Shown here: positions 11,596 to 31,572 of the stretch, piece by piece | Layout: the number at the start of each line of letters is the position of its first letter | How positions within the stretch are numbered: the stretch's first letter is position 1 | NCBI RefSeq assembly: GCF_046105845.1 | Contig: NZ_CP151004.1 | From: Escherichia coli | GTDB lineage: Bacteria; Pseudomonadota; Gammaproteobacteria; Enterobacterales; Enterobacteriaceae | DNA: 64,000 nt | Reading direction: 5' to 3' (one strand) | Made by a program: the position numbers and the translations under genes | The notes under the pieces: generated by a model | Databases searched by the model: none | What the model saw: only the letters and a program-made list of their open reading frames with translations | What the model was told of the DNA's origin: nothing

Positions 11596-13509
11596 TTACT
11601 TACGACCAGCCAGCAGTTCCAGCACTTCATCCACGCTGGTGGTGTGTGCCAGACGCTCGATGACAGTCTCATCATCCAGTGCATTGGTCAGGCTGGTGAT
11701 AACCTGAATGTGCTCGTTGTTACGGGCAGCAATACCAATCACCAGACGGGCAATGTCATCTTCTTCTTCACCGAAGCGCACGCCTTCCGGGTACTGGCAG
11801 AACACGACGCCCGTTTTGAGTACGCGATCTTTCGCTTCAACCGTACCGTGTGGCACCGCGATAGACTCACCCAGATAAGTCGGGGTCAGTTTTTCACGAT
11901 CCAGCATCGCCTGAACATATTCCGGCTCAACGTAACCGCCTTTCACCAGTTGCTCACCAGCAAAACGAATCGCTTCTTCTTTGGTGGCCGCTTTGCGACC
12001 GAGGAAGATGTTCTCCGCGCCTAGCTTGAACAGGTTAGCACTGGAATCGTCAAAGCTGTCTTTCAGACTGTCTTTCACTTTTACTTCGTTTTCAGTATGG
12101 CGCTGGGCAGCAACCAGACGTTCGGTCAGGCTGGTGTACAGGCCGCTGTCGAGGAAGTTGGTCAGCGAAATATGCTGTGCCTGCGGAACCTGGCGCATAG
12201 CGCGTTCGGTCAGGTCACGGTGAGTGATGACCAGGTCCACATCTGGCGGCAGGTTGTTGATCGCGCTGTTAGTGACCGAAATCTGCGACAGACCTGCATC
12301 CTGAATTTTCTTACGCAGCACGCCTGCGCCCATCGCACTGGAACCCATACCGGCGTCACAGGCAACGATGATTTTACGTACGTGGCTCAGGTCGTTAGTC
12401 ACATCGCCCGCAGACAGCGGGGACGCACCTTTAGACTCAGCTTTCATGTCCTGCATACGACGAGTTGCTGCTTCAATATCATCTTCTTCTTTCACTTTGC
12501 TGGTTTTCAGCAGAATGGCAGAGACAACGAAGGAGACAGCCATCGCCGCACACACACCCGCGATGTTAGCGAAATAAGCACCTTTTGGTGTCATCGCCAG
12601 TACAGCAAGGATAGAACCCGGAGATGCCGGAGAAACCAGACCACCGCCCAGGATAGTCAGCGTGAACACGCCAGTCATACCGCCGAGAATAACGGCCAGA
12701 ATCAGACGTGGATTCATCAGCACATACGGGAAGTAGATTTCGTGGATACCACCCAGGAAGTGGATGATTGCCGCACCGCCCGCAGATTGTTTAGCACTGC
12801 CACGACCAAAGAACATGTACGCCAGCAGCACGCCCATACCTGGACCTGGGTTAGCTTCAATCAGGAAGAAGATGGATTTACCCAGTTCATGGGACTGCTG
12901 AATACCCAGCGGCGAGAAGATACCGTGGTTAATGGCGTTGTTGAGGAACAGGATTTTCGCCGGTTCAACAAAGATAGACGCCAGCGGCAGCATGTCATGG
13001 ACAACCATGAAGTTAACGCCCGCAGCCAGCATTTTGGACAGGGCTTCAACAATCGGGCCAATGCCGAGGAATGCCAGAATAGCGAGGATCATCCCGATGA
13101 TGCCAGCGGAGAAGTTATTCACCAGCATCTCAAAACCGGATTTGATCTTACCGTCTACCCAGCGGTCGAAGTGCTTAATGCACCAGCCGCCCAGCGGACC
13201 TGCAATCATAGAACCGAGGAACATCGGCATGTCTGCGCCGACGATAACGCCCATGGTGGTAATGGCACCGACTACGCCGCCACGTTCGCCGCCTACCAGC
13301 TTACCACCGGTATAACCGATCAGCAGCGGCAGGAGATAAGTGATCATCGGCCCGACCAGCTTCGCCAGCGTTTCGTTCGGTAACCACCCTGTTGGAATAA
13401 ATAACGCGGTGATGATACCCCACGCGATAAACGCGCCGATATTTGGCATCACCATGTTGCTGAGGAAACGACCAAAGCTTTGCACTTTGATCTTAATATC
13501 GGATGACAT
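11596..13509 (-). CDS. mtlA: PTS mannitol-specific EIICBA
   Basis: 637-aa product [33 protein letters not shown]...; IIC membrane domain followed by IIB and IIA domains. Confidence 0.95.
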
Positions 13510-13652
13510 AAAAACACCCCTTCTTATGTTTGCTGTCGCGCAGGCTGGAAGCCCGAGGTTTTTTGTTAATGTGGCGGCAGAGGTAGCCGGACCTTGTAGA
13601 TACTGCGAAATCTGGCACTGAATCGGTTAACTGTCCAGTCGACGGCCTTTTG

Positions 13653-13829
13653 TGTGATATCGGTCACATAAATATAGGGGGTAGAGAGGTAATTGACGTG
13701 ATACTCATCACAAAACGCTTGTGTAAAAAAGCAACAAGGCGGCGATTTTCGCTAAAAATGGCATTTAAATGTGAGTAATGTCACATTTTTGTTTTGTTGG
13801 TTTGTTGAATCTTTGTGATCTGAATCACA
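13653..13829. promoter_or_regulatory. mtl promoter region with several CRP-type sites
   Basis: TGTGA-N6-TCACA matches: tgtgatatcggtcaca (13653-13668), gtgatactcatcaca (13698-13712), tgtgagtaatgtcaca (13770-13785), tgtgatctgaatcaca (13814-13829). Confidence 0.7.
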
Positions 13830-14045
13830 AGATATTTTTTTACGGCGTTCACCTGATGTGATCTACAGCATGTTATGCCTTCGTCATAAAATCGTTATGT
13901 AACTAAGCAACTCATCACCTCTAAAAATTATTCTTTGGTGTTATGGCGAGAATCGCGAACCCGAATTATTGTCAAAATATCAGCCTGACTCCCTTCTGGC
14001 TGCCAGCCAAAAAACAACACCGATAAACGTGAATCCGAGGCAGAT

Positions 14046-14408
14046 ATGTTTCTAAACTATTTCGCGTTGGGAGTGCTGATCTTCGTCTTTCTGGTGATTT
14101 TTTATGGAATCATCGCGATACATGACATCCCTTATCTGATTGCCAAAAAGCGCAACCATCCCCATGCCGACGCTATTCATACGGCGGGCTGGGTGAGCCT
14201 GTTTACTCTGCATGTTATCTGGCCGTTTCTGTGGATCTGGGCGACGCTCTATCAACCGGAGCGTGGCTGGGGTATGCAGTCACATGTTGCGTCGCAGGAG
14301 AAAGCGACTGACCCGGAAATCGCCGCACTTTCTGACCGAATTTCCCGGCTGGAGCATCAACTCGCCGCCGAGAAAAAGACTGACTATTCCACGTTCCCGG
14401 AGATCTAA
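14046..14408 (+). CDS. yibI: YibI inner-membrane protein
   Basis: 120-aa ORF with hydrophobic N-terminal half; divergent from mtlA, followed at 3 bp by yibH. Confidence 0.75.
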
Positions 14409-19641: not shown

Positions 19642-19734
19642 TGGCCTCTTATAAAAAGAGCAATAGCGGTCATGTTTTCAAATAAAAACACTTCGTAAGC
19701 TTCTCGCCCTTTTATACTCGTTCAGGAGTGTGTT

Positions 19735-20884
19735 ATGGCTGCTTCCACCTTTTTTTATTCCTTCCGTTAATGTCATTGGTGCAGATTCTTTTAAAGATGC
19801 GATGAATATGATGGCGGAATATGGTTTTCGCCGTACATTAATTGTGACTGATAGTGTGCTAACAAAATTAGGTATGGAGGGTGATGTACAAAAAGCATTA
19901 CAGGAACGTGATATTTTTAGCGTAATTTATGATGGTACGCATCCTAACCCGACCACAAAAAACGTCGCAGAAGCTCTTAAAATGCTGACGGAAAATAATT
20001 GCGATAGCGTGATTTCTTTAGGTGGTGGTTCCCCGCACGACTGCGCAAAAGGCATTGCGCTGGTGGCAGTTAACGGCGGCGATATTCGCGATTACGAAGG
20101 CGTGGATCGCACGGCGAAACCGCAACTACCGATGATTGCCATCAACACCACGGCGGGTACTGCATCAGAAATGACCCGTTTTTGCATTATCACCGACGAA
20201 GCACGCCACATCAAAATGGCGATTGTGGATAAACACGTCACCCCGCTGCTTTCTGTGAACGATTCGACTCTGATGATGGGTATGCCGAAGCCGTTAACCG
20301 CCGCCACCGGGTTGGACGCGCTGACTCACGCCATCGAAGCGTATATCTCTATTGCGGCAACGCCGATCACTGACGCCTGCGCGCTGAAAGCAATGACCAT
20401 GATCGCGGAAAACTTACCGATAGCGGTTGAAGATGGTCACAACGGCAAAGCGCGTGAAGCAATGTCTTACGCTCAGTTCCTCGCGGGCATGGCGTTTAAT
20501 AATGCTTCACTGGGATACGTACACGCGATGGCGTATCAGTTGGGTGGCTTCTATGACCTGCCGCACGGCGTTTGTAATGCCATTCTGCTGCCGCACGTTC
20601 AGTTATATAACAGCAAAGTTGCCGCCGCACGCTTTGACTGCGCGGCGGCTATGGGCGTGAATGTCACAGGCAAAAACGACGCGGAAGATGCGCAAGCCTG
20701 CATTAAAGCGATTCGCGAACTGGCGAAGACAGTGAATATCCCGGCAGGCCTGCGCGATCTGAATGTGAAAGAAGAAGATTTTGCGGTGCTGACCACCAAT
20801 GCCCTGAAAGATGCGTGTGGATTCACTAACCTTATTCAGGCAACCCATGAAGAAATTGTGGCGATATATCGCGCCGCAATGTAG
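19735..20884 (+). pseudogene. iron-containing alcohol dehydrogenase (YiaY/FucO family) paralog with an apparent +1 frameshift after codon 7
   Basis: ATG at 19735 with RBS aggag reads [15 protein letters not shown]; removing one T from the 7-T run restores [18 protein letters not shown]...; rest of ORF 19730..20884 is a full-length Fe-ADH (GGGSPHD motif, His-rich metal site). Confidence 0.6.
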
Positions 20885-21244: not shown

Positions 21245-22396
21245 ATGGCAGCTTCAACCTTTTTCATTCCCTCTGTGAATGTAATTGGCGCGGATTCATT
21301 AAAAGATGCAATGAATATGATGGCGGATTATGGTCTGCGTCGTACATTAATTGTGACAGGCCGTGTAATGGGCAAGAGCAGCGTGTTGGTGCAACTCCAA
21401 CAAGCCTTGCAGGAACGCAATATCGTAAGCGTTGTTTATAATGGCTCCCAACCGAACCCAACGACGAAAAACGTGGCTGCGGGTTTAAAAATATTGCAGG
21501 AAAATAATTGTGATAGCGTTATCTCCTTAGGCGGCGGTTCTCCACATGACTGTGCAAAAGGGATTGCGCTGGTGGCAACCAACGGCGGCGATATCCGGGA
21601 TTACGAGGGCGTAGACCGCTCGGCGAAACCGCAATTGCCAATGATTGCCATCAACACCACGGCGGGTACGGCGTCTGAAATGACCCGTTTCTGCATCATT
21701 ACCGATGAAACGCGCCACATCAAAATGGCAATTGTGGATAAACACGTCACCCCAATTCTTTCTGTTAATGATTCTACGTTAATGATGGGGATGCCGGAGT
21801 CACTGACCGCCGCCACTGGGATGGACGCATTAACCCATGCCATCGAAGCATATGTCTCTATTGCGGCAACGCCGATCACTGATGCTTGTGCATTGAAAGC
21901 GGTCACCATGATTGCTGAAAACCTGCCGCTGGCAGTAGCAGACGGAAGCAATGCCCAGGCGCGTGAAGCTATGGCTTACGCCCAGTTCCTCGCGGGTATG
22001 GCGTTCAACAACGCATCGCTGGGTTACGTTCATGCAATGGCGCACCAGTTAGGTGGTTTTTACAACCTGCCTCACGGGGTGTGTAATGCTGTTTTGCTGC
22101 CGCATGTTCAGGAGTTCAACAGCAAAGTTGCCGCTGCACGCCTGCGTGACTGCGCGGCGGCAATGGGTGTGAATGTAATGACAATGAACGAAGCTGAAGG
22201 TGCGCAAGCTTGCATTAATGCCATTCGCGAGCTGTCGAAGAAAGTGAATATCCCGGCAGGCCTGCATGAACTGGATGTTAAAGAAGAAGATATTCCGGTA
22301 CTGGCCACCAATGCCCTGAAAGACGCATGTGGGTTTACAAACCCAATTCAGGCAACCCACGAAGAAATTATGGCGATTTATCGCGCCGCAATGTAA
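21245..22396 (+). CDS. yiaY: iron-containing alcohol dehydrogenase (YiaY family), intact, 383 aa
   Basis: [26 protein letters not shown]...; Fe-ADH motifs; length matches what I recall for K-12 YiaY; which of the two copies is the true ortholog is uncertain. Confidence 0.8.
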
Positions 22397-22525: not shown

Positions 22526-23821
22526 ATGGTTATCAAATCACCTCCCACGCTGATTCCTTTATCACACTTATCGGGTGAGGAACTCCAGGCCCACCTGCGC
22601 TTTAACCGGGTTACCGATGAAAAAGGACGTTATCTACCTTTTGATGAGTTGCAGTACCGCATCAAAAAAGGAGAAAACGTCGAAGTGGCGTGGACGCTTA
22701 CCCGTCTGGCGCGCAACGCGGCGATCCAACGAATCAATTATTGCAATGAAGCGGGTGAACAGGCCGGATACAACATTACCCCGGTGATTGCAGAAGCGTG
22801 CGAGCTTGTCGACAAACGTGCTACCGCGCTGGCGCTGAAAGATCAGACTGAACGGTTACGCGGGGCCGGAGCCGAGTTAAGCCAGTTACGCCTGGAAGAG
22901 CCGATCACCAGCTCCCAGCTGGAAGGTGCGAATACTACAACGCTGGTGGCGAGAAAAATGCTGGAAACAGGGCGGTCGCCACGCACTGAAGACGAGCATA
23001 TGATTGCAGGAAATGCCCGACTGATGGCGGAAATTCCGCACTTACTCGCAGAACCGCTGACACCTGCGCTTATTCGCCAGTTACATGCCATTGGTATGGG
23101 TGGAATCAATGACGCGAAATATCGTCCGGGAGAATTTCGTGAAACAGATGATGTTGTGATCGCCGACTATGACGGCAATATTGTGCACCAACCGCCCGCT
23201 GCGGCATTGTTGCCGGAACGGCTGGAAAAAGTTTGCCAGTGGTTAAACAGCCATGAAGGGTATATTCACCCGTTAATCCGTGCCTGCATTCTGCATTTTA
23301 TGCTGGCCCATGAACATCCATTTCGCGATGGCAACGGGCGCACCAGTCGGGCACTGTTTTACTGGTATATGCTGAAATCGGGCTACGATGTTTTTAAATA
23401 TATTTCCATCAGCCGTTTTCTTCATGCTGCGCCAGTCAAATATGCTGCCAGCTACCAGTACACTGAATCAGACGGTATGGATCTGACTTATTTCCTTGAG
23501 TATCAGGCGGGTGTCATTAAACGTGCTTTGCAAAACTGGCAGCAGCATATTGATGAAATTATGCAACGAAGTGCAAAACTCGATAGTGTGCTGTTTAGCT
23601 CTGGTGTGCTTAAACGCCTGAATCCGCGCCAGGTAACGCTCCTGAATGTGATGCTCGCCAATCCGGGGAAAGAGTACACAGTTGCTGAAATTAGCGCGAG
23701 CCTGGGCGTCTCTGATAATACGGCTCGAGCTGATTTACGGACAATTGTTAAAGAAGGGTTTGCGCAAGAGAAAAGAATTAATAACCAGCAAGCAGTGTAC
23801 GTCGCACACTACCCGCTGTAG
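22526..23821 (+). CDS. Fic-domain protein (putative AMP-transferase), 431 aa, with N-terminal inhibitory-type motif and C-terminal HTH-like region
   Basis: Canonical Fic motif [12 protein letters not shown] at residues 264-275; S-x-x-x-E-G match (SSQLEG) at residues 129-134; C-terminal about 70 aa resembles a winged helix-turn-helix. Confidence 0.85.
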
Positions 23822-23928: not shown

Positions 23929-25467
23929 ATGACCAATAATCCCCCTTCAGCACAGATTAAGCCCGGCGAGTATGGTTTTCCTCTTAAGTTAAAAGCCCGT
24001 TATGACAACTTTATTGGCGGCGAATGGGTAGCCCCTGCCGATGGTGAGTATTACCAGAACCTGACGCCGGTGACCGGGCAGCTGCTGTGCGAAGTGGCGT
24101 CTTCGGGCAAACGAGACATCGATCTGGCGCTGGATGCTGCGCACAAAGTGAAAGATAAATGGGCGCATACCTCGGTACAGGATCGCGCGGCGATTCTATT
24201 CAAGATTGCCGATCGGATGGAGCAGAACCTCGAACTGTTGGCGACGGCAGAAACCTGGGATAACGGCAAACCCATTCGCGAAACCAGTGCTGCCGACGTG
24301 CCGCTGGCGATTGACCATTTCCGCTATTTTGCCTCGTGTATTCGGGCGCAGGAAGGCGGGATCAGTGAAGTCGATAGCGAAACCGTGGCCTATCATTTCC
24401 ACGAACCATTAGGCGTGGTGGGGCAGATTATCCCGTGGAACTTCCCGCTGCTGATGGCGAGCTGGAAAATGGCCCCTGCGCTGGCGGCGGGCAACTGCGT
24501 GGTGCTGAAACCCGCACGGCTTACCCCGCTTTCTGTACTGCTGCTAATGGAAATCGTCGGTGATTTACTGCCGCCGGGCGTGGTGAACGTGGTCAACGGC
24601 GCGGGTGGGGAAATTGGCGAATATCTGGCGACCTCGAAACGTATCGCCAAAGTGGCGTTTACCGGCTCAACGGAAGTGGGCCAACAAATTATGCAGTACG
24701 CCACGCAAAACATTATTCCGGTAACCCTGGAGCTGGGCGGCAAGTCGCCAAATATCTTCTTTGCTGACGTGATGGATGAAGAAGATGCCTTTTTCGATAA
24801 AGCGCTGGAAGGCTTTGCACTGTTTGCCTTTAACCAGGGCGAAGTTTGCACCTGTCCAAGCCGTGCTTTAGTGCAGGAGTCTATCTACGAACGCTTTATG
24901 GAACGCGCCATCCGCCGTGTCGAAAGCATTCGTAGCGGTAACCCGCTCGACAGCGTGACGCAAATGGGCGCGCAGGTATCTCACGGGCAACTGGAAACCA
25001 TCCTCAATTACATTGATATCGGCAAAAAAGAGGGCGCAGATGTGCTTACCGGCGGGCGGCGCAAGCTGCTGGAAGGCGAACTGAAAGACGGCTACTACCT
25101 CGAACCGACGATTTTGTTTGGTCAGAACAATATGCGCGTGTTCCAGGAGGAGATTTTTGGCCCGGTGCTGGCGGTAACCACCTTCAAAACGATGGACGAG
25201 GCGCTGGAGCTGGCGAATGACACGCAATATGGCCTGGGCGCGGGCGTCTGGAGCCGCAACGGTAATCTGGCCTATAAGATGGGGCGCGGCATTCAGGCCG
25301 GGCGCGTGTGGACCAACTGTTATCACGCTTACCCGGCACATGCGGCGTTTGGCGGCTACAAACAATCAGGTATCGGACGCGAAACCCATAAGATGATGCT
25401 TGAGCATTACCAGCAAACCAAGTGCCTGCTGGTGAGCTACTCGGATAAACCGTTGGGGCTGTTCTGA
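23929..25467 (+). CDS. aldB: aldehyde dehydrogenase B
   Basis: 512 aa from [17 protein letters not shown] (RBS aggag upstream); aldehyde dehydrogenase family with catalytic Cys region; the 542-aa ORF is a 5-prime extension. Confidence 0.9.
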
Positions 25468-25744
25468 TATAAGAAGCTGGTCGCATTGGGTATTCATTGC
25501 CTGATGCGACGTTTGCGCGTTTTATCAATTCAAATGTCTACGTCTTGAATGACTGAATATTGATTGAACTTAATTACGAGTCTCCTCGCATATTTTCTAC
25601 CAATTACTGCACACCGTTATTCTTCTTCCGAGTGGCATTCCTGAGTCAACTTTATCCCCCTGACGGCCCATATAAATCGCGCTATCGTGATTGTTATCGC
25701 TAATTGTGTGTGTATCGTGTGTATAATCATGGAAGGGCAGGGAT

Positions 25745-25930
25745 GTGAAAAGTGCAGACGTGATCGCCATCCTGAAGCAGCATGGCTGGGAACATATTCG
25801 AACCCGTGGCAGTCATCATCAGTTCCGCCACCCTGTTCATCCGGGTCTGGTGACGGTTCCGCACCCTAAAAAAGATATTAAGCCCGGTACGCTGGCGCAA
25901 ATTGGGCGTCAGGCTGGTTTAACATTTTAA
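25745..25930 (+). CDS. hicA: HicA-family toxin
   Basis: 61-aa basic protein (GTG start) ...LKQHGWEHIRTRGSHHQFRHP...; size and G-S-H-H motif fit HicA; immediately followed by hicB. Confidence 0.75.
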   Translation: MKSADVIAILKQHGWEHIRTRGSHHQFRHPVHPGLVTVPHPKKDIKPGTLAQIGRQAGLTF

Positions 25931-25946
25931 AATTTCAGGAGGCAAT

Positions 25947-26357
25947 ATGTTTTATCCCGCCTATATCCACAGTGATCCTGACGGCAGCGCCAGCGGTTTT
26001 TTCCCTGATGTTCCAGGCTGTTATTTTGCTGGTGATACGCTGGACAACGCTTTCCAGGATGCGCGAAGTGCACTGGTCGCGCACTTCGAAACCTTATGCG
26101 AGATGAATGAAGAGTTGCCGCTTCCAGGCTCTGTGGAAACACATCTGGTCCAGCGTGCGCAGGACTTTATTGGCGGGCAATGGTTGCTGGTGGATATCAA
26201 TATGAATCAATTCGAAGGTCGGGCTGAACGTATCAATATTACGATGCCAAAAAGATTACTGAACAAGATTGATACCTACGTGCGCAATAACCCAGACTAT
26301 GCCAACAGAAGTGCGTTTCTGGCGGAAGCTGCCCGGCGTGTATTGCCGGGCGTTTAA
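25947..26357 (+). CDS. hicB: HicB-family antitoxin with C-terminal ribbon-helix-helix-like region
   Basis: 136 aa; N-terminal HicB-like fold; C-terminal RINITMPKRLLNKIDTYV...RSAFLAEAARR resembles an RHH DNA-binding domain; 16-bp gap after hicA. Confidence 0.75.
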   Translation: MFYPAYIHSDPDGSASGFFPDVPGCYFAGDTLDNAFQDARSALVAHFETLCEMNEELPLPGSVETHLVQRAQDFIGGQWLLVDINMNQFEGRAERINITMPKRLLNKIDTYVRNNPDYANRSAFLAEAARRVLPGV

Positions 26358-26402
26358 TCTCGCGTTTCGATGGTTGGCGGGCAACCGCACCGATATGTTG
26401 AT

Positions 26403-26432
26403 ACTGATAAGACGCGTTAAGCGTCGCATCAT
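26403..26432. repeat. REP-like element at the hicB / glycosidase 3-prime junction
   Basis: ctgataagacgcgttaagcgtcgcatcatg resembles a REP unit; a partial REP-like gcctgatgcgacg lies near 25500 after aldB. Confidence 0.5.
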
Positions 26433-28393
26433 GCGCTGGTTTCCTCATTCACCCAGATCCGCATTTCGCCTTCACCCCGGTTGGCCCAGCTAAACCACGG
26501 GATAAAGGTCAGGGTTTGCGGCTGGCGTTTGGCTGGCGCACTGTCGTAATGCCACAGCGGTTGTTGTTCTGGATTGCTCTGTTCATACCGGTAACCCGGT
26601 GCCTGGATTAAGATCTTATGGCTGAACAATCCCTTACCTTCAAATGTCGTAAATGGCGCATCGGCGGGCAGCCACAGATTATGCAGTGACTCGCCGTTGT
26701 CGGCCTGTTCCAGGCAATACACCAGCGGGCCGCGCTGAATCGCCACTTTTCCGGCGACGTGACGCACCAGCGGGTTACCGTAAACGCGGCGTACCGGCAT
26801 CGGCAAAGTCAGATTCAGCGTATCGCCCTCCTGCCATTCGCAGGTAATGTGCAAATACCCTTTACGAATATCCTGCTCGACCTCTTCCCCATTCAATATG
26901 ATCTGCGGCTGTGTGCACCAGTCCGGCAGACGTAAAGCCAGCGTATGACGCACCGGCTGGGGCGATTCAACCGCAATTGTCACCTGTTCCTGCCACGGAT
27001 AGTTTCCGCTAACCCGCAGACGCAGCGTGCCATTTTCTACCGGCACTTCCATGCTGTTTCCTGCGTAGATGTTGATATACAACGCATCTTCACGCGGCGT
27101 GTAGAGATAATGACCAATCGAGGTTAGCACGCGGGCGATATTTGGCGGACAACAAGCGCAACCAAACCAACGCTGGCGGATCGGCTTAACGTGATCGTAG
27201 ATATGGTTGAATTTTAACGTTTTTGGATGCACTTCCAGCGGATTAACGTAGAAGAAATGTTTGCCATCCAGCGCCATGCCGCCGAGCACGGTGTTGTACA
27301 GTGCGCGCTCCATCACATCGGCATATTGACTGTCGCCTTCCATTTCCAGCATTCGCCGGGCGAACATCATCAGGCCGATGGAAGCACAGCTTTCGGCGTA
27401 TACCGTGTCATTCGGCAGATCGTAATCGCTGCTGAACGCTTCGCCGCTGCTTTGTGAGCCAATGCCGCCGGTAATATATAACTGACGCTGGGCCATATTG
27501 TTCCACAGCCGCAGGCAGTCCTGACGCTTGCTTTCATCGTGACTTAAACGCGCGAGATGCGCGACACCGGTCATCAGATATACAAAGCGTACTGCATGTC
27601 CGATGGCGGTTTGTTGCTGTGCGATGGGCAAATGCGCCTGGCTGTAGGCTTTATCTTTCACCATCCACGCCGGGCCGTAGGTGTGCCAGTGCGAGGTCTG
27701 CCCGCGCTTTTCATATTCCTGGTCGTAATAGTGCGGTTGCGCACCACGCTGTTCGACAAAATAGTTCGTCAGCGCCAGGTAGCGCGGCTCTTCGGTCACT
27801 TCATACAGGCGCATTAGTGCCAGTTCAATTTCCGGGTGACCAGGATAACCGTGTAACTTACTTTCACCTGGACCAAATACGCTGTCGATATGATCGGCCA
27901 GACGGCAAACCACTTCCAGCAAGCGCCGCTTGCCCGTGGCCTGGAGGAAGGCGACTCCGGCTTCAATCAGATGACCGGCGCAGTAAAGTTCATGACACTC
28001 CGCCAGATTGCTCCAGCGTTCTTCGGGCGCTTTTACCGTAAAGTAAGTATTGAGATAGCCATCTTCGCACTGGGCGGAAGCGACCAGTTCGATTACCTCG
28101 TCAGCGGTTTTTTCCAGTTCGGCATCCGGCTTCTGGCACAGCGACCAGGCTACCGCTTCCAGCCATTTGGCGACGTCGCTGTCCTGAAACACCATCCCGT
28201 AAAATTCACCGTCTTGCAGTCCTGCGGCAATGCGAAAGTTTTCAATCGCATGGCTGGGTTCCGCTTCTGGGATACGATCGTTCAAGGCATCCCACTGATA
28301 AGGAATCACCACGTCGCGGACCAGTTGTTGGTACTGACCGAGGAACGGATCGCTGACCGTCAGTTTATGCAGATCGACTTCCGAAATGTTCAT
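26429..28393 (-). CDS. glycoside hydrolase family 127-like protein (DUF1680 / beta-L-arabinofuranosidase-like)
   Basis: About 654 aa from MNISEVDLHKLTVSDPF; AAGGAG RBS 6 nt upstream of this start; Cys-rich C-terminal half as in HypBA1-type enzymes; assignment is from family resemblance by eye. Confidence 0.65.
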   Translation of the reverse strand: MNISEVDLHKLTVSDPFLGQYQQLVRDVVIPYQWDALNDRIPEAEPSHAIENFRIAAGLQDGEFYGMVFQDSDVAKWLEAVAWSLCQKPDAELEKTADEVIELVASAQCEDGYLNTYFTVKAPEERWSNLAECHELYCAGHLIEAGVAFLQATGKRRLLEVVCRLADHIDSVFGPGESKLHGYPGHPEIELALMRLYEVTEEPRYLALTNYFVEQRGAQPHYYDQEYEKRGQTSHWHTYGPAWMVKDKAYSQAHLPIAQQQTAIGHAVRFVYLMTGVAHLARLSHDESKRQDCLRLWNNMAQRQLYITGGIGSQSSGEAFSSDYDLPNDTVYAESCASIGLMMFARRMLEMEGDSQYADVMERALYNTVLGGMALDGKHFFYVNPLEVHPKTLKFNHIYDHVKPIRQRWFGCACCPPNIARVLTSIGHYLYTPREDALYINIYAGNSMEVPVENGTLRLRVSGNYPWQEQVTIAVESPQPVRHTLALRLPDWCTQPQIILNGEEVEQDIRKGYLHITCEWQEGDTLNLTLPMPVRRVYGNPLVRHVAGKVAIQRGPLVYCLEQADNGESLHNLWLPADAPFTTFEGKGLFSHKILIQAPGYRYEQSNPEQQPLWHYDSAPAKRQPQTLTFIPWFSWANRGEGEMRIWVNEETSA

Positions 28394-28403
28394 CTTGTGC
28401 TCC

Positions 28404-29804
28404 TTAAGGCTGTACATGACGCTGACGCAGGTCGCTAGCTATGCGTGACATCATAGGGTTATTGAGTTTGCAAAAGCGGATCGCCATCGCCAGCAGCAGG
28501 TGGAATAGCGCAGGCAGCAATGTTTCCATCGCCGCGATCCCGCCAAGCGAACTGGCGGTCTGGTTTTCCACGCCTGGCTGGTAGGCGACAAAAATAAACA
28601 GCAGGCTGATGATCCCGGCGCTGGAGGCCCAGGCCAGCTTGATGAAAAACAGATTGAAGGCGAAGTTCATGCCGGAAGAACGTACGCGGGTTTTCCACTC
28701 GCCGTAGTCATCGGCAAAGGCCATCAATGAGAAGTGCAGTGGCAATGTGAAGCCAAGAATCACGCCATTACCGAGGATCACCGCCAGCCACAGCGTTTGA
28801 TAAGCCGGGCCGGAGGGCAGGAACCACATCAACACCGCCAGCGCGGCGAGGAGCAGGTTGGTGTAGTAGTAAATTTTGACGGTATCGAAACGCCGCGTTA
28901 ACGGGCTGACAATCACCGAGCCGATAATGGAGGCGAAGGTGACCATGGTGAAGAACAGCGACGTGTAGCCCGTACTGCCTTGTAAGACGTAGGTAATGAA
29001 GTACATATACCCACCGCCGCGAATATTAAAGACGTTAATCAGCAGGAAAGACATGACCAGCATCAGCAGCAGTTGGTCGTTGTTCCGCAGCCCGGCAAGA
29101 TGTTCGCGCAGGGTAAATTTCCCCATTGTGGAGAGTGGCACCCGTTCACGAACCCAGAAGAAACAGCACAGGAACATCACCACGGCAATGGCGCACAATA
29201 CGCCGACGCCCAGTTGATAGCCGCGCGCGGCATTACCCTGACCGAAGAGATCCACCATCCACGGCAGGCCAACCGAAACCAGAAATCCCGCTACGCCGCA
29301 GAGAACGAATCGCCAGGACTGGCAGGAGATCACTTCATTGTGGCGGGTGGTCATGGTGTTGATCAGCGCGCAGTACGGCACGTTGATGACGGTATAACCG
29401 ACTGAAAGGAGCAGGTAAGTGCCGAACGCCCAGGCGATTTTTACTCCCATGCTGGCATCTGGCACGGTGAACGTCAGGATGCCGATAATGCCGATGGGAA
29501 TGGCAATCCACAACTGCCACGGACGAAAGCGCCCCCAGCGACTTTGCGTCCGGTCGGCAATGACGCCCATCACCGGGTCGGAGATGGCATCAAACACGCG
29601 CAGTGCAATAAACAGCGTGCCGACCAGCGCCGGAGTTAAGCCAAAAACGTCGGTGTAGAAAAAGGTGAGAAAGTTCATGATCAGGCAAGTTATTACGGTG
29701 CCGCCTGCGTCACCCAGGCCGTAGCCTATTTTTTCCCGTACAGATAACGCATCGTCAATTTTACCTTTAGCGATATCAGCGGTAGTAATCGGTGTAGAGG
29801 TCAT
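28404..29804 (-). CDS. GPH-family (glycoside-pentoside-hexuronide) cation symporter
   Basis: 466-aa 12-TM protein; N-terminal GYGLGD motif and overall MelB/YicJ/XynT-like pattern. Confidence 0.8.
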
Positions 29805-30029
29805 AGATATTCCTCGTGAATAGGGAGCAATTTTTAGTTTTATTGCAATGACCTGATTAATTCTGCCGTGAACGGGAATATCAACAAGGCGAGAAAAGAG
29901 TAAAAAAAGGTGACGATTCCGACCTGAATTTAAAAGTGTGAATTGGATCAGGTGAAATTAATGTTTTTGATTAATAATCAAAAGGTAATGTGTTTAATCA
30001 TTAATGAATAAGCGGGAAATTACATATCA

Positions 30030-30845
30030 ATGCTCGAATTATCCATGACGTTACCGATTAAAGTGCAAAATGGTGGATTATTTATTTCCCGTGGCGTAGG
30101 GAGGCATCCGGCAAGGCGGCTGGAGTCATGGGAAATTATCTTTGTCGAAAAAGGTCGATTAACGATTCAGGAAGAAGAGCGGATATTTCTGGTCGATGCG
30201 GGAGAGAGTTTATTACTCTGGCCGAACCGACAGCATGTTGGGGTAGAGGATTTTCCCGCCGATCTCAAATTTTACTGGCTGCATTTTGAGGTTAAAGCGC
30301 CGGATAGCGACCCGCGCTGGCTCACTCATCTTAGCGTGCCGCAACAAACGAAGGTTGCCGATCCGCAGGCGCTGGTGGCCCTGTTTCGCCAGTTCTTAAG
30401 CGAACAGGAAAAGCATCAGCGCACTCCGGCGCTGGAGTTTATTGTGCTGCTGATTTTGCAGCAACTCACCCGTGACGCGCGTCTTGATGAACAGGCCGAT
30501 GCCGCAGGTACCACGCTTGCCTGGAAAGCGCAGAAACTGATCCGCACGCAATATCATCGCCCGCTTTCCACGGCGCTTTTAGCCCGCGAGCTGTACTGCA
30601 ATGCCGATTATCTTGGGCGCGTCTATCGGCGGGTGTTTCATCTGACGTTAACAGAAGCAATCCATCGCCAGCGAGTGCGCGAAGCCGAAAAGCTGTTAAT
30701 TAGCGAAGCGCGATCGCTCACTGAAGTGGCTGCGTTGTGCGGGTTTAATGACGTTGGCTATTTCCGGCAGATTTTTCGCAAACACACCGGTTTAACGCCA
30801 GCAGCGTGGAAGCGGCGTTACAGCAAGGAACATATCAATTCGTAG
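30030..30845 (+). CDS. AraC/XylS-family transcriptional regulator
   Basis: 271-aa ORF with cupin-like N-terminal sugar-binding region and C-terminal AraC-type HTH; divergent from the symporter. Confidence 0.8.
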   Translation: MLELSMTLPIKVQNGGLFISRGVGRHPARRLESWEIIFVEKGRLTIQEEERIFLVDAGESLLLWPNRQHVGVEDFPADLKFYWLHFEVKAPDSDPRWLTHLSVPQQTKVADPQALVALFRQFLSEQEKHQRTPALEFIVLLILQQLTRDARLDEQADAAGTTLAWKAQKLIRTQYHRPLSTALLARELYCNADYLGRVYRRVFHLTLTEAIHRQRVREAEKLLISEARSLTEVAALCGFNDVGYFRQIFRKHTGLTPAAWKRRYSKEHINS

Positions 30846-30846
30846 T

Positions 30847-30868
30847 GCCGGGGCGATGAAGCCCCGGC
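30847..30868. terminator. GC-rich hairpin between convergent AraC-family gene and sgbE
   Basis: gccggggcgatgaagccccggc perfect stem-loop; no T-run. Confidence 0.4.
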
Positions 30869-30876
30869 GTGAGGGA

Positions 30877-31572
30877 TTACTGCCCGTAATAGGCATTGGC
30901 CCCATGTTTACGCAGGTAGTGCTTATCCAGCAGTTCGTTTTGCATCGCAGGGAGCTGCGGCGCAAGCTGGCGCGAGAACAGGCCCATATAGGCGCACTCT
31001 TCCAGCACTACGGCATTATGCACCGCATCGGCGGCGTTTTTACCCCAGGCGAACGGGCCGTGAGAATGCACCAGTACCGCCGGGATTTGCGCCGGACTCC
31101 TGCCGCGTTCTTCGAAAGTTTCAATGATCACTTCGCCGGTCTGGTATTCATACTCGCCGTTGATCTCCTCTGCGGTCATCTGTCGCGTGCAGGGGATGGC
31201 ACCATAGAAATAATCAGCGTGCGTGGTGCCCCAGGCGGGGAGATCCAGCCCGGCCTGCGACCAGATGGTCGCGTGGCGCGAGTGGGTATGCACAATGCCA
31301 CCGATTTCGGCATAGCGACGGTAAAGCGCCAGATGCGTTGGCGTGTCGGACGAGGGCTTTTTGCTGCCTTCTACCACCTTACCGCTGGCTATCTCAACCA
31401 CCACCATATCGTCGGCGGTCATCACGTCGTACTCGACGCCGGAAGGTTTGATTACCATCCATTGCCGCGCTTCGTCTACCGCGCTGACATTGCCCCAGGT
31501 GAACGTCACCAGATGGTGAGCGGGAAGCGCCAGATTCGCCGCCAGCACGTCGGCTTTCAGTTGCTCTAACAT
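30877..31572 (-). CDS. sgbE: L-ribulose-5-phosphate 4-epimerase
   Basis: 231-aa class II aldolase/epimerase [30 protein letters not shown]... Confidence 0.9.

Follow-up and report, generated by a model that had tools for sequence, protein, structure and literature searches.

According to our analysis, a 64,000-nucleotide stretch of Escherichia coli DNA (RefSeq assembly GCF_046105845.1, contig NZ_CP151004.1; hereafter the window) contains an autonomous three-gene locus that probably serves for the scavenging of small beta-L-arabinofuranosides. The cassette encodes a hydrolase of glycoside hydrolase family 127 (GH127), a symporter of the glycoside-pentoside-hexuronide:cation (GPH) family and a divergently transcribed AraC-family regulator. 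A first-pass annotation of the window had recognized the architecture of a glycoside uptake-and-cleavage locus, and this view was borne out by the family identities of all three products.

Organization of the Locus

The elements of the cassette are the following (window coordinates, strand in parentheses):

26429-28393 (minus): GH127 hydrolase gene, 654 amino acids, predicted cytoplasmic beta-L-arabinofuranosidase
28394-28403 (minus): hydrolase-transporter spacer, 10 nt; the Shine-Dalgarno sequence TAAGGAG shares its TAA with the transporter stop codon
28404-29804 (minus): GPH-family symporter gene, 466 amino acids
29805-30029 (no strand): divergent regulatory region, 225 bp, GC content about 0.40
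30030-30845 (plus): AraC-family transcriptional regulator gene, 271 amino acids

All three open reading frames (ORFs) are intact (26429-28417, minus; 28404-29804, minus; 30030-30845, plus). The hydrolase has its conserved start codon at 28393 (ATG; MNISEV...), which is used by RefSeq and matched by all orthologues; a 662-residue product starting at 28417 was rejected, as this merely mechanical first ATG overlaps the transporter gene, whereas the conserved start has a Shine-Dalgarno sequence. The co-orientation of hydrolase and symporter genes across a 10-bp gap and the divergent position of the regulator gene, as described in the first pass, agree with the coordinates and with the junction itself. 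The latter reads, on the minus strand, ...CAG CCT TAA GGAGCACAAG ATG AAC ATT..., where GGAGCACAAG is exactly 10 nt and the transporter stop codon TAA is embedded in TAAGGAG, a strong ribosome-binding site ahead of the hydrolase. The short gap and the Shine-Dalgarno sequence imply that the two genes would form an operon, co-transcribed and coupled in translation. A GPH-GH127 spacing of about 10 nt recurs in orthologous loci (e.g., GPH end at 7987 plus the stop codon, GH127 start at 8001).

The regulator gene diverges from the transporter gene across the 225-bp A+T-rich spacer and is followed, 31 bp further, by the convergent sgbE (30877-31572, minus). Beyond the hydrolase gene lie hicB (25947-26357), hicA (25745-25930) and then aldB, which ends at 25467. 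The earlier placement of the cassette between sgbE and aldB thus holds for the region as a whole, but hicA/hicB intervene between aldB and the hydrolase gene. The GC content of the cassette (0.52-0.56) is similar to that of the flanks. RefSeq had already labeled the three products as "glycoside hydrolase family 127 protein," "MFS transporter" and "AraC family transcriptional regulator." An Rfam scan of positions 25400-31000 at E-values up to 1 gave one chance-level match and revealed no riboswitch or small RNA.

The GH127 Hydrolase

Three Pfam domains, PF07944 (residues 12-427, E = 4e-111), PF20736 (438-532) and PF20737 (534-649), give the hydrolase the complete GH127 architecture. The best match among solved structures is PDB 4QJY from Geobacillus (E = 7e-234, 782 bits), with 54% identity over 630 aligned residues in a full-length, co-linear alignment, followed by HypBA1 from Bifidobacterium (E = 1.7e-152, 513 bits). 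Both of these closest solved relatives are beta-L-arabinofuranosidases; the GH127 entries 6EX6 and 5MQO score far lower (388 and 317 bits, respectively).

In HypBA1, the nucleophile C417 is located on a Zn center together with E338, C340, and C418, and E322 acts as the acid/base residue (PMC10728902). The equivalent positions of the hydrolase, with HypBA1 numbering in parentheses, are E318 (E322), E334 (E338), C336 (C340), C412 (C415), C414 (C417), and C415 (C418), all of which are invariant in 84 aligned sequences. Membership of the hydrolase in CAZy family GH127 (formerly DUF1680), proposed in the first pass, is supported by the three domains and by the alignment to HypBA1, in which the predicted catalytic cysteine and Zn ligands are intact. 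From these relatives we infer the hydrolysis of terminal beta-L-arabinofuranosides (EC 3.2.1.185) as the probable activity. On inspection, the N-terminus MNISEVDLHKLTVSDPF is hydrophilic and has no hydrophobic stretch resembling a signal peptide, and the hydrolase is therefore predicted to be cytoplasmic. Assignment to the aceric acid hydrolase subgroup (NCBIfam equivalog NF049879) was rejected, as the score was 451 bits against a cut-off of 950 (E = 6e-135).

The GPH Symporter and Its Relatives

The identification of the transporter as a GPH-family symporter was likewise upheld: it passes the model TIGR00792 (gph) with 333.7 bits against the curated cut-off of 231.35 (residues 25-462) and contains the Pfam domain MFS_2 (residues 27-448). 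The best NCBIfam subfamilies are YagG-like and PRK11462-like, with scores below the cut-offs of all named equivalog models; therefore, the transporter represents a distinct orthologous group. A direct homologue search returned near-identical enterobacterial sequences only, and more distant relatives were taken from representatives clustered at 50% identity, among which the family thins quickly. These relatives adjoin various glycosidase genes:

P0122 (62% identity): GH51-type alpha-L-arabinofuranosidase gene (PF22848 + PF06964) directly upstream
P0127 (42% identity): GH43 gene 4 bp downstream
P0133 (39% identity): GH31 gene adjacent
P0131 (37% identity): GH101-like gene adjacent
P0132 (36% identity): GH3 gene adjacent

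The glycosidases adjoining the transporter here and in its relatives suggest a glycoside as the substrate class. GH51 and GH43 are families that include arabinofuranosidases, and their presence beside the nearest relatives fits an arabinofuranoside substrate.

The Regulator and the Divergent Regulatory Region

The prediction of a divergent AraC-family regulator was confirmed by the combination of a cupin ligand-binding domain (AraC_binding, residues 26-132, E = 2.5e-9) with helix-turn-helix domains (HTH_18, residues 184-263, E = 4e-19, and HTH_AraC). The best NCBIfam match is AraC itself (NF007860), at 61.5 bits against a cut-off of 208; orthology with AraC was rejected on this score, and the protein is a different member of the family.

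An alignment of 70 orthologous regulator-transporter spacers, ranging from Escherichia to Rouxiella, provided a footprint of the regulatory region with the following elements:

29965-29983 (no strand): regulator-proximal perfect palindrome TTTTGATTA-T-TAATCAAAA, conserved in at least 80% of the spacers
29937-29952 (no strand): candidate CRP site, TGTGAATTGGATCAGG as read on the plus strand, two mismatches to TGTGA-N6-TCACA
29909-29925 (minus): conserved 17-mer AGGTCGGAATCGTCACC, candidate binding site of the AraC-family regulator
29908-29899 (minus): conserved promoter-proximal block TTTTT(A/T)TACT
29889-29882 (minus): conserved promoter-proximal block CCTTGTTG
29866-29860 (minus): conserved promoter-proximal block GCAGAAT

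The pattern GATC-N5-TCACA-N-TTT (in the transporter sense) and the core of the 17-mer, GTCGGAAT, were each kept in at least 95% of the spacers. With up to three mismatches allowed, the 17-mer occurs once in the window. The scan of the regulatory region for sigma-70 consensus promoters found none, with 5.3 expected in shuffled sequences, and this fits activator-dependent promoters. TTGTTG could act as a weak -35 element and CAGAAT, after a 16-nt spacer, as the -10 element, with the putative activator sites immediately upstream. Under such a promoter, the CRP-like site would lie near -91, in the layout of araBAD- and rhaBAD-type promoters.

On the regulator side, an A+T-rich imperfect 23-nt direct repeat with 27-nt spacing (29959-30008) overlaps the conserved palindrome near the regulator gene; it could represent the regulator's own promoter or an autoregulatory site.

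Distribution and Selection

The prevalence of the cassette was determined in 5426 complete E. coli genomes by classes of query coverage:

2312 genomes: cassette covered to at least 80%, in every case on the chromosome and never on a plasmid
About 2470 genomes: only a two-piece scar of about 294 bp, or less
About 640 genomes: no match at all (e.g., locus L003 of our set, where aldB abuts sgbE)
1885 genomes: at least 80% coverage of a longer query that continues into sgbE

Beyond E. coli, 80 loci, one genome per species, with a hydrolase identity of 72-97%, were re-annotated by tblastn. The AraC-GPH-GH127 triplet was intact in 69 of these 80 species-representative loci, whatever the flanks, and was found in Citrobacter, Klebsiella, Raoultella, Enterobacter, Lelliottia, Kluyvera, Kosakonia, Phytobacter, Buttiauxella, Pantoea, Mixta, Rouxiella, and Enterobacillus, as well as in Salmonella diarizonae. 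Downstream of the triplet, aldB was present in 42 of 69 loci at a distance of 97 bp to 5.1 kb, with hicAB inside this gap in several genera. In Pantoea the triplet is flanked by unrelated genes. In Bradyrhizobium spp. (L078-L082, L085) a lone GH127 gene (72% identity) stands among unrelated neighbors, with neither a GPH nor an AraC gene adjacent, possibly as a result of transfer from one bacterial class to another. The genes flanking the locus in Pantoea and Bradyrhizobium encode a diguanylate cyclase, subunits of ABC transporters, a histidine kinase and a peptidase and provided no hint of the substrate.

The ratios of nonsynonymous to synonymous substitution rates (dN/dS) against orthologues from Escherichia, Citrobacter, Salmonella, Klebsiella, Enterobacter, and Pantoea ranged from 0.03 to 0.12 (hydrolase, 0.03-0.06; transporter, 0.06-0.10; regulator, 0.05-0.12), and these are rough values, as dS is saturated between genera. 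Within E. coli, dN/dS was about 0.06 per gene against strain EC17CM2 (L006). All three genes are thus under strong purifying selection, and the triplet represents an old, selected, self-contained unit.

One locus of the set, labeled Chryseobacterium sp. 18061 (L031), has an enterobacterial gene order, AraC-GPH-GH127 coordinates equal to those of Citrobacter sp. 18056 (L028) and nearly equal identities; this assembly is probably mislabeled or contaminated.

Comparison With K-12 and the Variable Slot Next to aldB

In K-12 MG1655 the gene order is sgbE, the pseudogenes ysaC (b4648, 102 bp) and ysaD (b4649, 192 bp), yiaT-yiaU-yiaV-yiaW, and aldB. BLAST comparison identified ysaC as the 3'-terminal 104 bp of the regulator gene (window 30742-30845) and ysaD as a fragment from within the GH127 gene (90% identity to window 26531-26720). 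By this comparison, K-12 carries a 4,021-bp deletion of window 26721-30741 and a second deletion of 210 bp at the 3' end of the hydrolase gene. The first-pass annotation had taken the three genes to be missing from this position in K-12; this stands for the intact genes, but scars of two of them are present.

The same annotation had the cassette occupying the place of the K-12 genes yiaTUVW, a proposal that had to be abandoned: E. coli O157:H7 Sakai and EC17CM2 have both, in the order aldB-yiaW-yiaV-yiaU-yiaT-GH127-GPH-AraC, and the yiaTUVW slot of the present window holds hicAB. The cassette and yiaTUVW are thus neighboring elements that coexist in many E. coli and do not replace each other. 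The variable insertion slot is the gap between the hydrolase gene and aldB, filled by hicAB here and by yiaTUVW in K-12. A strain-specific island replacing yiaTUVW was rejected because of this coexistence, the cross-genus synteny, the flank-like GC content, and zero plasmid matches; composition, synteny, and the lack of plasmid copies likewise led us to reject a horizontal island. The triplet is ancestral at this position in Enterobacterales and vertically inherited, and one deletion has removed it from K-12 and from about 45% of complete E. coli genomes.

The hicA/hicB toxin-antitoxin pair (25745-26357, plus) fills the aldB-GH127 gap, and a HicB homologue is also encoded directly downstream of the hydrolase gene in other genera, e.g., in Yokenella (L048), Pluralibacter (L037), Lelliottia (L049), and Enterobacter (L060). 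A Fic-family ORF between yiaY and aldB (22526-23821, plus) marks a second variable slot; it is present in the E. coli loci L003, L005 (Sakai), and L006 (EC17CM2) and absent in L001, L002, and K-12.

Relation to the sgb Operon

The first-pass annotation had also suggested that the cassette and the neighboring yiaK-sgbE operon may form one functional unit, in which the glycoside would be cleaved to an L-pentose for further conversion by LyxK, SgbU, and SgbE. The two adjoin in this window, sgbE abuts the regulator gene in 24 of the 68 species-level loci with enough flank, in several genera, and SgbE is by family a genuine L-ribulose-5-phosphate 4-epimerase, the last enzyme activity of L-arabinose catabolism. 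Against this, presence and absence of the two are independent. O157:H7 Sakai keeps the cassette but lacks the entire yiaJ-yiaK...sgbE block, so that ysaA comes next to the regulator gene (12591-14123 of its locus). About 430 E. coli genomes (2312 minus 1885, a coverage-class estimate and not a per-genome audit) have the cassette without an adjacent sgbE, which corresponds to the arrangement of O157:H7; conversely, the roughly 2470 genomes with mere cassette scars, K-12 among them, keep sgb. Of the 68 species loci, 40 have the triplet but no sgb over a distance of at least 5.5 kb. The cassette operon and sgbE are separated by the regulator gene, which is convergent with sgbE, so that co-transcription is precluded, and the operator-like 17-mer has no second copy anywhere in the window, the yiaK promoter region included. 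Adjacency to aldB is even commoner, and the sgb adjacency therefore reflects inherited synteny. Furthermore, E. coli has dedicated araBAD genes, so that released L-arabinose feeds AraA/AraB/AraD and the Sgb enzymes are not needed. We therefore consider it highly improbable that the cassette and the sgb genes work as one unit.

In Escherichia whittamii (L008, at about 4657-6364), sgbU is the direct neighbor of the regulator gene and no sgbE was detected, which suggests a lineage-specific loss of sgbE beside an intact cassette.

Proposed Function

In the mechanism that we propose, the AraC-family protein would sense the glycoside or the released L-arabinose through its cupin domain and, probably together with CRP, activate the divergent promoter of the two-gene operon; induction would thus be subject to catabolite control. 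Judging from its family and from the neighbors of its relatives, the GPH symporter would import a short arabinofuranoside driven by a cation gradient. It would probably take up beta-L-Araf-(1,2)-L-Ara or comparable fragments, which extensins, arabinogalactan-proteins, or pectin may yield through the action of plant enzymes or of other microbes. The cytoplasmic GH127 enzyme would then remove the non-reducing beta-L-arabinofuranose by a retaining cysteine-glycosidase mechanism, with the Zn-bound Cys414 as the predicted nucleophile and Glu318 as the acid/base. The L-arabinose would enter the AraA/AraB/AraD pathway, the established route of L-arabinose catabolism. No secreted releasing enzyme was seen in the cassette or its annotated flanks, where no GH121-specific search was run, and the substrate would therefore be supplied by plants or other microbes.

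The proposed system resembles several known ones. Bifidobacterium longum is reported to divide the work on beta-L-arabinooligosaccharides among an enzyme outside the cell, an importer, and HypBA1 inside the cell (PMC7263609). Import of a short beta-L-arabinooligosaccharide followed by intracellular cleavage is also the logic predicted here, and the hydrolase is of the same family as HypBA1 with all its catalytic and Zn residues conserved (PMC10728902). It differs in that the importer here is a single GPH symporter and not an ABC transporter, the regulator is of the AraC type, and the extracellular GH121/GH43 releasing enzymes were not seen in the region covered above. HypBA1 itself has an N-terminal insertion that is absent here, and it scores much lower than the Geobacillus enzyme. 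The latter, Ara127N of Geobacillus stearothermophilus T6 (PDB 4QJY/4QK0), is the closest solved relative and was deposited as a GH127 beta-L-arabinofuranosidase, but it comes from a Gram-positive thermophile; Ara127N lies in a large L-arabinan utilization cluster with ABC importers.

Within E. coli, the pairs yicJ-yicI, yagG-yagH, melA-melB, and uidA-uidB follow the same two-gene logic of a GPH transporter and a cytoplasmic glycosidase, whereas here the partner glycosidase belongs to GH127 and the transporter to a distinct orthologous group. The regulatory part is reminiscent of araBAD, rhaBAD, and melAB: a divergent AraC-family activator with a cupin sensor and a weak target promoter, preceded by conserved blocks and by a CRP-like site at a distance of roughly 90 bp from the putative start. 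It differs from the araBAD type in that the regulator is only distantly related to AraC (61.5 vs. 208 bits) and that the sites and the start are predicted.

Alternative Explanations

The same import and cytoplasmic hydrolysis could act on a substrate other than a beta-L-arabinofuranoside, i.e., on a different furanoside or on some unusual sugar. The functions within GH127 are heterogeneous, the aceric acid hydrolase model matches the hydrolase (E = 6e-135), 6EX6 and 5MQO are related to it, and at 54% identity the specificity is likely conserved but not guaranteed. We regard this alternative as unlikely, given that the top two solved relatives are both beta-L-arabinofuranosidases and outscore those two structures by a wide margin, the aceric acid model falls far short of its cut-off, and the nearest transporter relatives adjoin GH51 and GH43 genes. 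It is still less probable, and in our opinion about as improbable as a joint unit with the sgb genes or slightly more so, that E. coli retains the locus as no more than a silent or decaying relic, heading for loss and without a current physiological role. Such decay would agree with the loss of the cassette in more than half of complete E. coli genomes, the negative sigma-70-like promoter scan, and the lack of a reported phenotype. It is contradicted by the three intact ORFs with their low within-species dN/dS, by the invariance of the catalytic residues, and by the conservation of the regulatory blocks across genera; in addition, the K-12 scar ysaD has drifted to 90% identity, compared with 95.7% for the neighboring ysaC-sgbE stretch.

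Several points nevertheless weigh against scavenging of beta-L-arabinofuranosides. The substrate assignment rests on 54% identity to one characterized enzyme, and GH127 includes activities other than arabinofuranosidase: an NCBIfam model for aceric acid hydrolases exists, and the family also contains 3,6-anhydro-D-galactosidases. This clade of transporters is paired with GH127 within Enterobacterales only, possibly through shared ancestry, and the Bradyrhizobium homologues stand alone. The CRP pattern by itself is not significant (34 matches in the window vs. 26 expected), and the site at 29937-29952 was retained as a candidate because of its cross-genus conservation; the promoter and operator assignments are likewise a reading of the conservation pattern. 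Within the limits of the literature covered, our search found no functional study of, or experiment on, this locus in any enterobacterium.

Other Features of the Window

Two tandem genes for yiaY-like iron alcohol dehydrogenases (19730-20884 and 21245-22396, both plus) both exceed the cut-off of NF007363, the equivalog model for L-threonine dehydrogenase; a single yiaY is located between selB and aldB or the Fic gene in the six E. coli loci compared (L001-L006). Four perfect or near-perfect CRP core sites occur within 180 bp at 13653-13829, probably a heavily CRP-controlled promoter, which may be that of mtlA.

Conclusion

Overall, our verdict is that the cassette is an ordinary, autonomous arabinofuranoside-scavenging locus. 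The RefSeq gene labels and the K-12 pseudogene annotations were known already, and what we describe is an uncharacterized locus of a known kind of system, which reveals no new enzyme class, transporter class, or regulatory principle. The analysis supplies an origin for ysaC and ysaD, two K-12 pseudogenes annotated without a product, and corrects the picture of the sgbE-aldB region, in which the cassette is ancestral and the hydrolase-aldB gap is variable.

In an earlier study, the GH127 gene appeared as an accessory gene correlating with the invasiveness of isolates associated with inflammatory bowel disease, and cleavage of beta-Ara2 was assumed there by analogy (PMC11879602). Uptake of beta-L-arabinofuranosides and growth on them may be within the reach of approximately 43% of complete E. 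coli genomes, O157:H7 and ST131 strains among them, though not of K-12, a suggestion that we make tentatively and consider somewhat short of an even chance. These compounds are fragments released by bifidobacteria and plant enzymes from extensins and arabinogalactan-proteins. If the suggestion is true, the locus would be an unrecognized determinant of cross-feeding and of the plant or gut niche, and would have been overlooked because the laboratory strain has only the ysaC/ysaD scars. It would add a carbohydrate-utilization trait of E. coli and its relatives that is invisible to K-12 studies, and could be relevant to the use, by both commensal and pathogenic E. coli, of plant-derived glycans that other gut or phyllosphere microbes liberate.

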